DNA from: an uncultured Methanosarcinaceae archaeon
GTDB lineage: Archaea; Halobacteriota; Methanosarcinia; Methanosarcinales; Methanosarcinaceae
NCBI GenBank assembly: GCA_963847185.1
Contig: CAWJYV010000010.1
Span: 672,001 to 736,000 of the forward strand
DNA length: 64,000 nt
Reading direction: 5' to 3'
Numbering within the stretch: position 1 is the first letter of the stretch; each line of letters begins with the position of its first letter. The notes beneath the pieces are model-generated. The model did not search any database, was not told where the DNA came from, and saw only the letters and a list, made by a program, of their open reading frames with translations. The translations under genes were made by a program, and so were the position numbers. This document shows, piece after piece, positions 1 through 5,064 of the stretch.

Positions 1-681
1 TATACTTTCAGGTTCGGAGTATCTTTCAATTTTGCAGGGTTTGGAATCAGGTAGGAAGAATATCACGACAAGAGCCCCTATAACTGAAATTACAAGGGCT
101 GCAGACACAGGGAGAAGTTCACCGTAAACAGTTGCCCCGAGGAGACCTGCAAGGGCAGGGCCGACTACATATCCAAGATTGGAGGCAACAGACATCCTTC
201 CATAGTTTTTGTTTCTATCCTCTTCGGATGTCAGGTCTGCAAGATACGCGTTTGCCACAGATATGTTTCCTCCTGTAGCCCCATCAAGAGCTCTGCCACA
301 GAAAAGCGCAAACAGAGGAAGGGTGACTGTAAATGTACCAAGAAATTCGGAGTTAACTTCTATTAAAGGGATTATCGGCAGGAAGAGCGCGGAAAGAAAG
401 ATTATCCATCCAATAACGGTCCCAATCTGGCTCAATAACAGAATTTTTTTCCTCCCATAAAGGTCAGACCAGCGCCCCAGAACAGGAGCTCCGATGAGCT
501 GGAAGAAAGGATAAGTGGAAGTCAGCAGGCCGTAGATAAGTGCATTTCCTTTGTAGTCAGTCACGAGAAATACGAGAAAAGTGAGGATAACCCCGAATCC
601 CAGGGTTCCTATGAATGTGATCGTATATAAGGGAAAAAGTGCCTTCCCTTCTACAGATGAGGATTCTGAATCCCGAATCAT
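1..681 (-). CDS. MFS transporter (TetA/DHA1-like), 3' end outside window
   Basis: Manual translation from ATG at 681: MIRDSESSSVEGKALFPLYTITFIGTLGFGVIL...GAPVLGRWSDLYGRKKILLLS; contains MFS motif A (GxxSDxxGRK). Absent from ORF track because it runs off the edge. Confidence 0.85.
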   Translation of the reverse strand, partial: MIRDSESSSVEGKALFPLYTITFIGTLGFGVILTFLVFLVTDYKGNALIYGLLTSTYPFFQLIGAPVLGRWSDLYGRKKILLLSQIGTVIGWIIFLSALFLPIIPLIEVNSEFLGTFTVTLPLFALFCGRALDGATGGNISVANAYLADLTSEEDRNKNYGRMSVASNLGYVVGPALAGLLGATVYGELLPVSAALVISVIGALVVIFFLPDSKPCKIERYSEPESI

Positions 682-1394
682 CCATAGATAGTATGTTTAC
701 TTCATGCCTTATAGTATTTCATATCTAAATTTTCGAGTTTCGATGTGGCTTCTTTCGGAGTAAATGAATGCTATTCTTTCATTTCTCTATGAAAAATACC
801 GCTAAACACAGGCCAAGAGTCACTTTCCCGGTGTTGTTTCCAGAATGCCTTTTTCTGGAAAGGTTCTAAACTCTTCTCATTTGTATCCCATGTCGAGACT
901 TAAACGTGAGGTCAAGCTAAGTCTTTAGACAATATCTAAAATCTGGACATTCTGTACTTAAGAACAGCTCATTAAGAGGTTTTTATGTTATTTGGGAGCT
1001 GTATGAGGAACTAATTAACGCCTGAAATGATTCTTTTTGCTTTATTCGCATTCTAGCCGCTTTCAGAGATTTTATAAAGAATAAAAAGATGAATAATACG
1101 TGAAAACTACCTTTTGCTTTTCTCGGAGACTTTTTAATTGATATAGGAGTTTATATACTGATTTATTTAAATTTGGAGTTTCCATCATCTATTATCAAGG
1201 TAAATAAAGTATTATCAAGTTTTAAACCCTTTACGCATAGCAATATTCAGGACTGTTATAAAAAGTATACTTATATTCTAATTTTACAATATGAGTTTAG
1301 TCCCAGGTTGCTTCCCTTGAAATAAAGCAAAAGTCGGGAGCAATATACGGGAAATTAAAAGATCTTTAAATTTGAAGGAATAAAGATCTCTCTA

Positions 1395-1780
1395 AAAAAT
1401 AAGAAGGAAACTTCGAAAAACGAGGAACAAACACGGAGAAAATTGAACACTAGTACGTTCAGTGTACGAAAGTTGCGATATCTGCTCTTTCAATTAAGTC
1501 TCTGTTCCTTCCGGAGATGCTGTGGCAGAAATCGCTACCAGATCCCGTGCAGGCAACCTGCATTATGCCTCTGAACAGGTACTGATTCAGAGTAGACGGT
1601 TGCACGACAACAGAAAGCACAGTTGTTGTATTTCTCTGTGATGAATAAAAACCCTGGATAAGCGGTAGAAAGGCGGTGTCTGATACTGAATGAATCGGGG
1701 TTACTACCTTACACAGAAGAATTTTTCAGGTAACACCTGAGGGCGGATCAGATGTTGCCTGAAAGATCTTTCTTATTTTT
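1395..1780 (+). ncRNA. Candidate large multibranched structured RNA
   Basis: No long ORF; ends can pair (AAAAATAAGAAGGA / TCTTTCTTATTTTT) and enclose several hairpins. Confidence 0.45.
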
Positions 1781-2045
1781 GGGTAGATATTTTCGAGATA
1801 GTTATTTCTAGCTTGCTATTTTCTGAATCTATTCTTTAATCATTAATGCTGTTTTTAGTCGTAATTTTATAAGTTGCTATTTGTGGCCGATTTTAAGTGT
1901 TATTCTCTGGGCCTTATTTTCAGTGTTACTTTGGAATTATTAATCTTCGAATCTTAATTCTTTAACTTCTTGTCCTTTACAGATGGATCTCGCAAAATAA
2001 AAGGCCTCGAAATATTCTTTATTCCAGAGTATTATTCGGTTATAT

Positions 2046-2717
2046 ATGTCAGTAATATATTGGAAGAATATTTCCGGAAAGAATATACCTTCAAGCCTGG
2101 ATTTATACCCTGTAATTTATCAGTATTTACAGGATGGATACAAAATTCTCGACATTGGATGCGGTTTTGGCAAGATTAGCCTGAAACTCGCTTCCCTCGG
2201 ATATTCTGTGACAGGGATAGACATTAATCATGAGGCAATAAGGCTTTCAAAAGTAGTTGCAGAGGAGGGAAGTACTTCAGGAAAGGCTGAATTTGCAGTC
2301 GGAAATGCTTCGGTACTTCCTTTTTCTGGAAAAAGTTTTGATCTTGCAGTCATGCAGGCTTTTCTGACCTCTGTACCTGACGCGCAGGAAAGAATAAAAA
2401 TCATAAAGGAAACCTTCAGGGTACTGAAACCCGGAGGCTGTCTCTATCTTGTAGAATTTGGACAGAACTGGCACCTTAAACTTTATAGGAACCGTTATCT
2501 CAGGGATTTCCCAGTTACAAAAGAAGAAGGATCTTTCCTTGCCCATAACCCTGAGACCGGAAAAGTAGAGTATATAGCACATCATTTCTCCGAAAAAGAA
2601 CTTGTACTTCTGATGGTAAATTGCGGGTTTGACATCGACTATTTCAGGATTGAAGAACTCAAAACCAGAACCGGAAATAAAATTAATGGTTTTGTTATCA
2701 TTGCTAAAAGACTTTGA
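2046..2717 (+). CDS. Class I SAM-dependent methyltransferase
   Basis: ILDIGCGFG motif I, GIDI, FDL, LKPGG. Confidence 0.9.
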   Translation: MSVIYWKNISGKNIPSSLDLYPVIYQYLQDGYKILDIGCGFGKISLKLASLGYSVTGIDINHEAIRLSKVVAEEGSTSGKAEFAVGNASVLPFSGKSFDLAVMQAFLTSVPDAQERIKIIKETFRVLKPGGCLYLVEFGQNWHLKLYRNRYLRDFPVTKEEGSFLAHNPETGKVEYIAHHFSEKELVLLMVNCGFDIDYFRIEELKTRTGNKINGFVIIAKRL

Positions 2718-2855
2718 AGTTCCGTGTTTCATCTTCACAGAGCTTATTTTAAGTGTTGGATCTGGGTAAATCTTCAGACTCACATCATTTTCTTCTTTAT
2801 CAGTATCTCCTCATCACTATCTTCCCATCACTATTTTTTCATCACTGTTTTCTCA

Positions 2856-3182
2856 TCAATTTATTCTGTCACTTAGATGAAGTCCAACTACGCCTGCCAC
2901 GACAAAGAATAGGGATGATATTTTAAGTGTGTTTACCGGTTCTTTAAAAAAGAAAATCCCAATAACAGTAATGAGAGCTGTCCCAAGCCCTGCCCATATT
3001 GCATATGCGATACTTACATCTATTCCCTTAAGGGAAAGGGTAAAAAAATAGAAACTGATGGCATAAAATACGAAAATTAAAATGGAAGGAAACAATCTTG
3101 AAAAACCCTCAGAAAGTTTCATGCATGTGGTTCCACAGACTTCAAAAACAATTGCCAGTAAGAGCAGGTAGTAATAATTCAT
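2856..3182 (-). CDS. SMR/DMT small multidrug efflux protein (EmrE/QacE family)
   Basis: 108 aa, 4 TM segments, conserved Glu in TM1 (AIVFEV), MKLSEGF, AYAIWAGLG. Confidence 0.9.
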   Translation of the reverse strand: MNYYYLLLLAIVFEVCGTTCMKLSEGFSRLFPSILIFVFYAISFYFFTLSLKGIDVSIAYAIWAGLGTALITVIGIFFFKEPVNTLKISSLFFVVAGVVGLHLSDRIN

Positions 3183-3404
3183 TAATCCACTGTTTATTTC
3201 TCCATCTATTAATTAGTTATTTTTTATTAAATTCTTCAACGATCTATTCTTGCAAAATTATATTTTTTTGATAATAGGCCAAAAAATGGTCACAATTAAA
3301 GTATCATACTTATTTTCTCCAGTTAAAACAGCCGCTGAAGCCTGTAAATTATTTTTTTCATTTTGTAATTTCTGTTCTTATGTATACTGCACATCCTAGA
3401 TACA

Positions 3405-3564
3405 TTTATATAGTATGAGAGCTTGGGTCATATTAGCAGTAAAAATAAAGAGCCATATAATCTGTTATTAAAAACCTCATTTTTGTTTTTAATAAAAGAG
3501 CGTATAGATCTTATTTTTATAGCAGCCTAAATGTATATCCGCTATAAGCGGAGGTGAAACAAAA
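3405..3564 (+). promoter_or_regulatory. TATA box plus conserved structured leader, copy 1
   Basis: TTTATATA at 3405; stem TTATTAAAAAC/GTTTTTAATAA; hairpin TCCGCT-ATA-AGCGGA overlapping SD GGAGGTGA. Confidence 0.7.
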
Positions 3565-3789
3565 GTGAGTTTTAGTGACAGAGGAGGGCATTCCTTCAGA
3601 GGAAGAGATAGCAATCGGGGAAGTAGAGACAACAACCGTGGTGGTTTCAGAGGCGGCAGCAGCGGACCCAAAGAAATGTACCCAGCGGTTTGTTCTGACT
3701 GTGGCGTTGAGACCCAGGTTCCATTCAAGCCAGCTGAAGGAAGACCTGTTTACTGCAGAGACTGTCTCCCAAAACACAGAAAATTCTAA
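3565..3789 (+). CDS. CxxC-x17-CxxC domain protein with RGG-rich N-terminus, copy 1
   Basis: CSDC...VPFKP..GRPVYCRDC; SD GGAGGTGA; GTG start. Confidence 0.92.
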   Translation: MSFSDRGGHSFRGRDSNRGSRDNNRGGFRGGSSGPKEMYPAVCSDCGVETQVPFKPAEGRPVYCRDCLPKHRKF

Positions 3790-3989
3790 TTCCATAAATT
3801 CTGCATCTTCTAAGTTTTAGTGTTATAAATGGAAATCTCTGGAAACAGAATTTCCAAATCCACTTTATTCTAATGCTTATTTAACTCAAACTCTACAATT
3901 GATTTCACCTATGCTCTAGAAGCTGATTTATTACAACAATCTCCCGATTTTGAGGAAGACGCTTTTATCCTTTTGGTTCTCTGGATTAG

Positions 3990-4139
3990 TTATATATAAC
4001 ATAAACAGATTTTTACAATTAGTAAAAATAATAAGACATAATCTGTTATTGAAAACTTCATTTTCGTTTTAAATAATAAATTATCTCTTATCATATTTTT
4101 ATAAATTATTTTATCCGCTATAAGCGGAGGTGAAACAAA
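3990..4139 (+). promoter_or_regulatory. TATA box plus conserved structured leader, copy 2
   Basis: TTATATAT at 3990; same ATAATCTGTTATT..AAAAC and ATCCGCTATAAGCGGAGGTGAAACAAA blocks. Confidence 0.7.
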
Positions 4140-4364
4140 ATGGGTTTTAATGACAGAGGAAACTCCTTCAGGGGAAGAGACAGCAGCCGGGGTGGCAGAG
4201 ACAGCGGCCGTAGTGGTGGTTTCAGAGGCGGTAACAGTGGCCCCAGAGAAATGCACAAGGTTACCTGTTCTGACTGCGGGGTTGAGACTGAAGTTCCGTT
4301 CAAACCAACCGAGGGACGGCCAGTGTACTGCAGAGAATGCCTTCCTAACCACAGAAAATTCTGA
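4140..4364 (+). CDS. CxxC-x17-CxxC domain protein, copy 2
   Basis: CSDC...EVPFKPTEGRPVYCREC; RG-rich N-terminus. Confidence 0.92.
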   Translation: MGFNDRGNSFRGRDSSRGGRDSGRSGGFRGGNSGPREMHKVTCSDCGVETEVPFKPTEGRPVYCRECLPNHRKF

Positions 4365-4568
4365 AATTTAATATCTCACTCGTAAGTGTTGATCTATAAA
4401 TTAATATATCAACACTTGTCCACTTTTATTCATGCTTTTTGTTAAACTTTTTTTCCCCTTCTTTCTACATCGGGCTTTAACCTCGTTTGCAAGAGTGGCA
4501 GCTTCATAACGAAGGTTACAGTAACTCAAGGTAAAAACATTTTTCACGGTATACTGATATGATAAAAC

Positions 4569-4720
4569 TTATATAATGTGATTGTATATGTAGCTCCAGT
4601 AAAATTAAGAGTCATATAATCTGTTATTAAAAACCTCATTTTTGGTTTTAATAAAAGAGCATATAGATCTTATTTTTATAGCGTATTAGGAAATCCGCTA
4701 TAAGCGGAGGTGAAACAAAA
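4569..4720 (+). promoter_or_regulatory. TATA box plus conserved structured leader, copy 3
   Basis: TTATATAA at 4569; 12-bp stem TTATTAAAAACC/GGTTTTTAATAA; SD hairpin. Confidence 0.7.
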
Positions 4721-4924
4721 ATGGGTTTTAATGACAGAGGAAATTCCTTCAGGGGAAGAGACAACAACCGCGGAGGTTTCGGAGGTCCTAAGGAAATGCA
4801 CACTGCAGTCTGCTCTGACTGCGGTGAAGAGACACAGGTACCTTTCAGGCCAGACCCTGACAGACCAGTCTATTGCAGAGAATGCCTTCCTAACCACAGG
4901 AAGCCTAGAGAGAACCGCTATTAA
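4721..4924 (+). CDS. CxxC-x17-CxxC domain protein, copy 3
   Basis: CSDC...QVPFRPDPDRPVYCREC. Confidence 0.92.
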   Translation: MGFNDRGNSFRGRDNNRGGFGGPKEMHTAVCSDCGEETQVPFRPDPDRPVYCRECLPNHRKPRENRY

Positions 4925-5064
4925 CTCTCCTAATTCATTCATAATTTTGCTTGACATATTATGTCCGTTTTGCTGCTTGGGCAGGTCAAACGGACCACTT
5001 CTTTTTATACACTTAATTAAATGCCTATCTCTATTCTATGTTGCTCTGTTTTTTCATGGTAATA

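Follow-up and report, generated by a model that had tools for sequence, protein, structure and literature searches.

A probable stand-alone structured noncoding RNA gene confined to the archaeal genus Methanosarcina

Comparative analysis of a stretch of DNA from an uncultured Methanosarcinaceae archaeon (64,000 nucleotides [nt] of contig CAWJYV010000010.1, hereafter called the window) points to a stand-alone structured noncoding RNA (ncRNA) gene at about positions 1299 to 1780 of the forward (+) strand. The gene appears to be confined to Methanosarcina and to have escaped cataloguing so far; we give this reading as a whole a probability of roughly 0.78, and we have little doubt that a real structured RNA gene lies at these positions. 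An earlier reading of the same DNA, made from its letters and open reading frames (ORFs) (the sequence-only reading), had flagged positions 1395 to 1780 as an RNA of about 390 nt, either an uncharacterized large ncRNA or a long leader of the methyltransferase gene that follows. The first of these alternatives is borne out by a promoter block of the RNA's own, an end in a U-run, the lack of a match in Rfam, covariation, and the lack of a conserved ORF. The length has to be corrected: the RNA measures about 480 nt and starts near 1299, some 100 nt earlier than had been stated. Two hairpins mentioned separately at 1300-1390 are real, covary, and are part of the same RNA, so the element first described (1395-1780) is the body of an RNA of ~482 nt.

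Extent and gene signals

In pairwise and multiple alignments, sequence is kept among homologs from roughly 1080/1187 onward and breaks off sharply, in nearly all loci at 1778-1780. The conserved stretch is delimited by an invariant block with a B recognition element (BRE) and a TATA box and by a conserved U-run, while the downstream gene varies; both ends are predicted from sequence. The gene and its predicted signals are as follows.

1299 to 1780, + strand: RNA gene; predicted transcript of ~482 nt, from A1299 to the U-run, with a folding z score of -7.00, covariation, and contigs in RNA libraries
1261 to 1277, + strand: putative promoter, an A-rich BRE plus TATA box, AAAAGTATACTTATATT; an invariant block
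1767 to 1780, + strand: 3' tail UCUUUCUUAUUUUU, putative U-run terminator and 3' strand of the closing helix; conservation ends here

The block at 1260-1287 was invariant or nearly so in 28 aligned loci, and its conserved letters (1261-1287) read AAAAGTATACTTATATT(C/T)TAAT(T/C)TT(A/G)C. BRE/TATA architecture is typical of archaeal promoters, and on that ground positions 1261-1277 are predicted to act as one. The block resembles the AAAAG-ATATATATT block that lies 5' of the genome's RNase P RNA gene. From the distance to the TATA box and a conserved T-A step, transcription is predicted to start at A1299; the transcript must begin 5' of 1301, because the first helix starts there and covaries. 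Archaeal transcription terminates at oligo-T tracts, which makes the U-run at 1767-1780 a candidate terminator.

No catalogued family accounts for the element. A search of window positions 1-5000 on both strands with the 4227 models of Rfam 15, RNase P, SRP, group I and II introns, and riboswitches among them (cmscan, permissive filters), returned no match at E ≤ 10, so homology to any catalogued family is undetectable, and ARAGORN found no transfer RNA (tRNA) or transfer-messenger RNA (tmRNA) gene at 1000-2100. The sequence-only reading had remarked that hallmarks of RNase P RNA are absent. In agreement with this, the archaeal RNase P model RF00373 has no match in the element and matches another contig of the genome instead (G000:C8:115498-115854; 198.6 bits over the full model, cut-off 84); the candidate identity as archaeal RNase P RNA was rejected. 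A full-text literature search, with the list of intergenic small RNA (sRNA) candidates of Methanosarcina mazei lying outside the comparison, found no description of the RNA. Jaeger et al. reportedly listed 199 such candidates in M. mazei in 2009, and the RNA may be among the unnamed ones.

Covariation and architecture

Thirty-eight distinct full or partial copies were found through promoter-plus-terminator motifs among the fetched loci. Alignment A3 comprises 34 homologs of 475 to 655 nt, 18 rows in clade A (the window included) and 16 in clade B, the two clades being 53-65% identical to each other; left out were four short copies (L010, L027, L028, and L057; 347-401 nt), the divergent L059 and L060, and exact duplicates. 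Pairing was compared with a slid control, in which the pairing partners were shifted along the alignment, and with shuffles. The structure derived from clade A (138 pairs) paired in 86.1% of cells (slid, 40.4-49.6%), with 49 pairs changed on both sides (slid, 27-32), 146 cells changed on both sides (slid, 40-59), and a covariation score of 0.145 (slid, 0.052-0.066); 0/500 shuffles reached any of five measures. For the structure derived from clade B (130 pairs), the corresponding values were 85.5% of cells (slid, 37.5-46.6%), 56 pairs (slid, 26-36), 215 cells (slid, 55-89), and a score of 0.196 (slid, 0.059-0.074), and shuffles reached these measures in 0/500 cases on four and in 1/500 on one. 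Across the 34 sequences, then, the homologs show compensatory changes beyond both slid and shuffled controls, and the changes at long range span up to 370 nt.

Because each structure had been derived from half of the rows on which it was counted, a cross-clade test was made. A fold from clade B only, applied to clade-A rows, paired in 74.6% of cells (slid, 36-47%), and a fold from clade A only, applied to clade-B rows, in 79.5% (slid, 39-49%). Forty-eight pairs were identical between the two predictions.

Folding energies told the same way. On the + strand, positions 1395-1780 reached a minimum free energy (MFE) of -130.1 kcal/mol against a shuffle mean of -93.1 (standard deviation, 5.9; z = -6.30), and 0/100 shuffles were as good; the flagged region is far more stable than its shuffles. 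The MFE was -105.9 kcal/mol for the same positions on the - strand (z = -3.48), -154.9 kcal/mol for 1299-1780 on the + strand (z = -7.00), and -156.7 kcal/mol for the sense strand of a clade-B homolog 64% identical to the window copy (z = -7.95), each again with 0/100 shuffles as good.

The fold is multibranched: a 5' hairpin and a palindromic-repeat hairpin are followed by a long-range helix around three arms and by a long terminal hairpin. Its parts are as follows.

1301 to 1352, + strand: 5' hairpin H1, with UCCC/GGGA closing the inner helix UUGCUUCCC/GGGAGCAA; seen in the MFE fold, and helices 1-2 of the clade-A structure and 2-3 of the clade-B structure
1358 to 1390, + strand: hairpin H2, formed by the palindromic motif copies AAAGAUCUUU (1358-1367) and AAAGAUCUC (1382-1390); a third copy lies at 1762-1771
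1395 to 1408, + strand: 5' strand of the closing helix, the A-rich tract AAAAAUAAGAAGGA, pairing with 1767-1780
1473 to 1537, + strand: arm 1, helix 1473-1489/1521-1537, carrying the hairpin 1500-1516; the best-supported helix
1500 to 1516, + strand: hairpin CUCUG-UUCCUUC-CGGAG; clade-B helix 15, 97.8% paired
1569 to 1642, + strand: clade-A insertion, comprising hairpins 1569-1592 and 1604-1629, then UUUCUCUGUGAU (1631-1642), the pairing partner of 1707-1719
1650 to 1702, + strand: arm 3: AACCCUG/UCGGGGU as the outer helix, a second helix inside it, and the mini-hairpin GGC-GGU-GUC (1672-1680)
1721 to 1767, + strand: terminal hairpin with the invariant loop GGGCGG (1741-1746), identical in 34/34 rows

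Inner pairs of H1 alternate at columns 24/58 (UA:15 versus CG:13) and 31/51 (GC:13 versus AU:12). H2 (clade-A structure helix 3) is 91.7% paired, and one of its pairs is U-G in 18 rows and U-A in 16; this alternation fits a + strand RNA, since the wobble would be a mismatch on the other strand. The closing helix (clade-A structure helix 4) is 87.9% paired overall, clade A (99%) lying above clade B (75%), and one of its pairs is UA in 18 rows and CG in 8. Arm 1 shows changes on both sides in 11/13 pairs as clade-A helix 7 (91.3% paired) and in 14/16 as clade-B helix 13. In the hairpin that it carries, every letter of the pyrimidine loop UUCCUUC (1505-1511) is either invariant in A3 or conserved to 90% or more, which marks the loop as a candidate interaction site. 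The long-range helix UUAAGGG/CCCUUAA is 86.6% paired (one pair GC:16 versus UA:10), and the base of arm 2, UCCCGUG/...GCGGGA, is 94.1% paired.

The 3' half combines variable and invariant parts. None of the 16 clade-B rows of A3 has the insertion at 1569-1642; in the clade-A structure it contributes helix 11 (82.4% paired, 2 pairs changed on both sides), helix 12 (81.4%, 3 such pairs), and helix 13 (90.4%, 4 such pairs). Arm 3 corresponds to clade-B helices 20 and 21 (72.5% and 85.1% paired, four both-sides pairs each) and to clade-A helix 17 (100%), and its mini-hairpin contains the invariant GGCGGUG (1672-1678). The terminal hairpin is 93-95% paired, with both-sides changes in 6/19 pairs as clade-B helix 23 (95.0%) and in 7/18 as clade-A helix 18. 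An alternative pairing of the tail, 1769-1774/1714-1719, would lengthen this hairpin (clade-B helix 22; 90.6% paired, UA:16 versus GC:15). A scan for tertiary contacts matched the UUCCUU loop to AAGGAA and the CCUUC loop to the GAGGG in the terminal loop, and gave several combinations of the AGAUCU type; every one of these is invariant, so covariation cannot probe them.

Natural variation in the copies was seen at several places. A sub-domain of ~45 nt, CCUGCAGGUCAGAC...GGAUCNGCUGCGGGA (A3 columns ~556-600), is absent from the window copy at ~1643-1650 and from its closest relative, L002; it is kept by the other 16 clade-A rows and has a shorter form in all 16 clade-B rows. With this loss, the window copy has no 3' strand for the base helix of arm 2. 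In the A-rich 5' region, the palindromic AAAGAUCUU units number from 2 to about 6 among relatives. The region between the first and last AAAGAUCU is expanded in L017 (1014-1166), and also in L016, L025, and L042, as a 24-nt tandem array (unit AAAAACAAAAAGGAAAAGGATCTT, 4.7-5.9 copies in L017), and the RNA of these four relatives measures 576-655 nt. The motif AAAGRTCTY is unenriched across the 64-kb window (8 matches versus 7.17 expected; 39/100 shuffles reach 8), and five of the 8 matches, at three sites, fall within the RNA. The four short copies left out of A3 have large internal or 5' deletions and retain the promoter and the terminal hairpin; the losses reflect either modular deletion in nature or gaps in the assemblies.

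The sequence-only reading had quoted eleven stem pairs, all of which a script located in the window where they had been placed. Scored in the 33 other aligned sequences, most were kept or intermediate, and three were not the conserved pairings. The pairing of the ends, 1395-1408/1767-1780, held in 88% of 448 cells, and the final hairpin in 92% of 328 and 92% of 131 cells. Two stems, ACGACAAC/GTTGTTGT (80% of 132 cells) and TCTGTG/CACAGA (76% of 98), were kept within clade A alone. Intermediate values were obtained for GTGCAGG/CCTGCAT (69% of 177 cells, 23 of them doubly changed), and for CTCTGAA/TTCAGAG (66% of 112). AACCCTGGAT/ATCGGGGTT paired in 58% in the register scored and in 72.5% as helix 20 of the clade-B structure. 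The three that fell away were GAGGAACA/TGTTCCTT (62%, 1 doubly changed cell), AATTGAA/TTCAATT (48%), and GTGGC/GCTAC (57%), the last of which clashes with the best-covarying helix of the molecule.

The excess of G-U pairs from which + transcription had been argued is also seen across the homologs. The consensus structure holds 418 G.U cells versus 182 A.C cells and, because of this difference, folds better on the + strand (86.1% pairing) than when read on the - strand (80.0%). Promoter orientation, the U-run, and the energy z scores favor the + strand as well. These data bear on the suggestion that the element works at the DNA level, as a regulatory region or the remnant of a mobile or palindromic repeat element. 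Palindromic AAAGATCTTT motifs do occur at three places, AGATCTTT stands also 5' of the promoter in clade B, and tandem 24-nt units have expanded in some species. The element is nonetheless single copy and syntenic, the ratio of G.U to A.C cells and the U-G/U-A alternation within the palindrome hairpin fit RNA and not DNA, compensatory changes reach across as much as 370 nt, and contigs from RNA libraries cover the element. We regard a DNA-level feature as the least probable of the alternatives.

Coding capacity was the other property to be weighed against a noncoding RNA. Positions 690-2045 (1356 nt) contain no long ORF, and only frames of 31-53 amino acids, none of them conserved, overlap the flagged region, which had been called ORF-free and is better described as ORF-poor. 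A dual-function or coding transcript, with a small protein read from an AUG near 1444-1449, would draw on a frame of 17-84 codons that begins with AUG, GUG, or UUG at alignment columns 303-311 in many sequences, which have short peptide stretches in common. In 5/16 clade-B rows this frame is stopped at codon 8, several clade-A rows end it early or shift it, and its start codons vary. Minimum substitutions at codon positions 1/2/3 were 21/18/11 and 34/33/30, the third position changing least or equally and not most, and the columns of the frame also form the best-covarying helix. Given the stops, the frameshifts, and the lack of a third-position excess, a coding or dual function was rejected, and we hold it to be very improbable.

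Distribution, neighboring genes, and the leader question

The RNA is a single-copy feature of one genus. It has one match in its own genome, and BLAST found it in 27/36 other genomes of the genus and in 0/24 genomes of 12 other genera of the order. Covariance model R1, built from the RNAalifold consensus of the 3' domain (23 pairs) and used for searching, not for structure claims, matched 28/34 other genomes of the genus and 1/116 genomes of 15 other genera of the family; in an order-level draw it matched 11/12 genomes of the genus and 0/138 genomes of 22 other genera. The genome draws overlap, and kin among the genomes are not independent. The sole hit beyond the genus (G085, a genome 65% complete; 27.7 bits, E = 0.002) covers just the terminator-like hairpin UUUUUCAGGC...GCCUGAAAAA and was taken as chance. 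Homologs are thus present in most of the genus genomes searched and, that chance hit aside, in none of those from other genera. Among public contigs, 31 contain the exact promoter motif of 25 nt, 19 titled Methanosarcina, 10 titled uncultured Methanosarcinales or Methanosarcinaceae, and 2 titled otherwise, and 29/31 also carry the 3' domain.

In the R1 searches, genomes with a match have one on the sense strand, second matches being the hairpin read on the opposite strand. A mobile or repeated intergenic element was rejected as a candidate: there is a single match per genome, its place is syntenic, and the flanking genes are shared. Two metagenome-assembled genomes carry the promoter motif on two contigs each (L071 and L084; L079 and L090), and G022 (7% contamination) gave duplicate BLAST matches; these are probably mixed strains in one bin and not true second copies.

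Parts of the stretch were matched in 15 RNA-labeled runs of 10 studies in one search. Within window positions 900-2400, eleven contig pieces from four RNA libraries (three studies) were found, all of them within 1316-1748; the four runs gave no contig over 900-1315 or 1749-2400, a result that was not used as evidence on transcript ends. Four library contigs sit on the element over their whole length, and the loose ends of some contigs read on into letters that match the copies of relatives, such as the sub-domain absent from the window copy.

The RNA lies at one syntenic place, between MFS and SMR transporter genes. The surrounding features in the window are as follows.

1 to 681, - strand: divergent MFS transporter gene, running off the window (Pfam MFS_1, E = 1.1e-29)
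1191 to 1219, + strand: direct repeat of ATTATCAAG (copies at 1191-1199 and 1211-1219, 11 nt between), ~80-110 nt 5' of the predicted start
2046 to 2717, + strand: class I S-adenosylmethionine-dependent methyltransferase gene (Pfam Methyltransf_11, E = 8.7e-20), an inconstant neighbor
2856 to 3182, - strand: convergent SMR-family transporter gene (Pfam Multi_Drug_Res, E = 6.2e-29), the most constant right-hand neighbor

An MFS ortholog (77-86% identity) stands upstream in 14/38 loci, and another 4 have a weaker MFS match (48-60%); the flanks of the other loci, which may be too short, show none. Positions 690-1080 (~400 nt) hold no long ORF and are unconserved save for 52 nt near the MFS start in one locus (L003). 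The ATTATCAAG repeat, ~40-70 nt upstream of the promoter block, is the only exact pair of this motif at 10-16 nt spacing in the 4.04-Mb genome. Its second copy and the flank ATAAAGTATTATCAAG are nearly invariant in homologs, the first copy being kept as TTTATCAAGG or TTTATAAAGG, and in clade B a further AGATCTTT precedes the first copy. The repeat may be a regulator site or an additional TATA-like element. The promoter 16-mer likewise has a single exact copy genome-wide, with 24 other sites at 1-2 mismatches; given no second exact 16-mer and no second exact ATTATCAAG pair in the genome, no regulon can be inferred.

The sequence-only reading had offered a leader of the methyltransferase as its second alternative, and the neighboring genes speak to it directly. 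In this alternative, the RNA would be a long cis-acting leader whose exclusive tail pairings decide between termination at the U-run and read-through. The RNA does lie on the same strand as, and directly 5' of, the methyltransferase in 20/38 loci, including 15/16 clade-B loci (the sixteenth gene being degenerate), the clade-B U-run is weak (TCTTTATTGATTT), and the 3' tail can pair with either of two conserved partners but not with both at once, as in expression platforms. A leader would, however, keep a constant position in the 5' untranslated region, and of the 38 loci, 20 have a full-length methyltransferase downstream of the RNA, 1 has a degenerate copy, and 17 lack the gene (one of these with a flank of just 132 nt). 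Among the 17 loci that keep the RNA without the gene is that of the third-closest relative of the window copy (L047, 82% identical). Where the gene is present, 88-634 nt of unconserved spacer separate the end of the RNA from the start codon. There is no match to a riboswitch family in Rfam, and an RNA of 480-650 nt far exceeds known aptamers with platforms. Because the methyltransferase is absent in 17/38 loci and the spacer is variable and unconserved, the leader is disfavored, and we judge it improbable; the RNA is probably independent of the methyltransferase. In loci without that gene, the SMR stop codon lies 13-307 nt from the 3' end of the RNA, and at such distances the two transcripts could overlap tail to tail.

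Several observations count against a stand-alone, trans-acting RNA gene. Short tracts replace the continuous U-run in clade B, and all 16 of its loci have the methyltransferase next (one degenerate), so read-through is possible there. The two pairings of the 3' tail are mutually exclusive, each with one covarying pair. The start at 1299 is supported by promoter geometry alone. As to covariation, the aligned sequences are relatives that form two main clades, many both-sides changes being single events counted repeatedly, and half of the rows on which each structure was counted are those from which it was derived. The library data are contigs, which show presence and not start, end, strand, or level, and DNA carry-over could contribute to them. 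Six of the 34 genus genomes have no match, four of these being 99% complete, which makes the RNA dispensable; one RNA-less genome (L093, G165) retains the MFS ortholog (78% identity) but nothing of the RNA up to 1.5 kb away, and the L059 (G180) copy, whose terminal hairpin no longer pairs, looks decayed. From this pattern of presence and absence, the RNA is genus-specific and not indispensable. Finally, action in trans is something we infer, and with invariant loops covariation cannot probe their partners.

Proposed mode of action and significance

Most likely, to judge from its conserved letters and fold, the element acts as a trans-acting RNA or ribonucleoprotein. Transcription would run from near A1299 into the U-run and give an RNA of ~0.5 kb; the A-rich 5' tract would pair with the U-rich 3' tail, closing the body and perhaps shielding the 3' end. 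The RNA would then act in trans, either binding protein as a scaffold or working as a regulator, through the unchanging letters of its loops: UUCCUUC (1505-1511), GGCGGUG (1672-1678), and GGGCGG (1741-1746). A scaffold for one or more proteins, or for another fixed partner, would fit best, because the loops are invariant, the scaffold covaries, and the repeat number is variable; we put forward the protein-scaffold version tentatively, at less than even odds.

The next option after the protein scaffold, and another version of the trans-acting reading, is base-pairing with mRNAs. Here the UUCCUUC loop would be a candidate seed against the ribosome-binding site (anti-RBS) for purine-rich mRNA sites, and the body would serve stability and display. 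The loop's conservation and the 97.8% pairing of its stem speak for this option. On the other side, GGAAGGA differs from the usual GGAGG-type Shine-Dalgarno motif; the loop may also pair internally, since at least 85% of rows keep two possible partners, AAGGAA (columns 252-257) and the GAGGG in the terminal loop; and the display of a seed needs no multi-junction body of 480 nt. A precedent exists in M. mazei sRNA154, a highly conserved RNA in Methanosarcina whose loop 2 carries an anti-RBS sequence, according to the review PMC5867862. On balance we think base-pairing regulation improbable, if less so than a methyltransferase leader. A bolder version, which we consider unlikely, would make the element the first archaeal giant orphan RNA and a folded machine, either the core of a ribonucleoprotein or a self-assembling RNA whose AAAGAUCUUU repeats (2 to ~6) pair molecules with one another. 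The invariant GGCGG and UUCCUUC loops would then be its active or binding surface, and its role would be specific to Methanosarcina biology.

Among known systems, the closest in general character are the orphan large structured ncRNAs of bacteria, OLE, ROOL, GOLLD, and raiA. Like them, the RNA is several hundred nt long, noncoding, and narrow in range, with many covarying helices and predicted promoter and terminator signals of its own. Unlike them, it has an archaeal host, is confined to one genus, and lies beside transporter genes and not beside the known partners of OLE. With archaeal RNase P RNA (RF00373) it shares a similar size, a stable multibranched fold, and a BRE/TATA promoter of similar form, but it has no match to that model. 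Riboswitches and long 5' leaders are similarly structured, lie on the same strand upstream of a gene, as this RNA does in about half of the loci, and can have alternative 3'-tail pairings beside a U-run; the RNA differs from them in being kept where the downstream gene is absent (17/38), in its variable spacer, and in matching no riboswitch family. The M. mazei RNAs sRNA154, sRNA162, and sRNA41, of roughly 100-250 nt, come from the same genus and are likewise intergenic, with their own promoters and conservation within Methanosarcina. They are described as two-loop or two-domain RNAs, whereas this one, at 475-655 nt, has multi-way junctions and long-range helices. Conserved hairpin loops that could pair with mRNAs are a further likeness. 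The likenesses draw on PMC5867862, for sRNA154, and on PMC3510493.

To our knowledge, hardly any large, intricately folded, conserved archaeal RNAs have been described beyond ribosomal RNA (rRNA), RNase P RNA, and signal recognition particle RNA, and each of the bacterial orphan RNAs became a long-running research problem. The element described here is a candidate with clear boundaries, strong covariation, and several dozen natural variants, modular insertions and deletions among them. It belongs to a genus with genetic tools and an in-cell structure-probing protocol (DMS or SHAPE) established on the rRNA of M. acetivorans, as set out in PMC10578495. Being well bounded, rich in variants, and hosted by a tractable genus, the RNA has a role that is directly testable by deletion, pull-down, and probing. 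The alignment also supplies a covariance-model seed with which an unannotated gene can be annotated in Methanosarcina genomes and metatranscriptomes.

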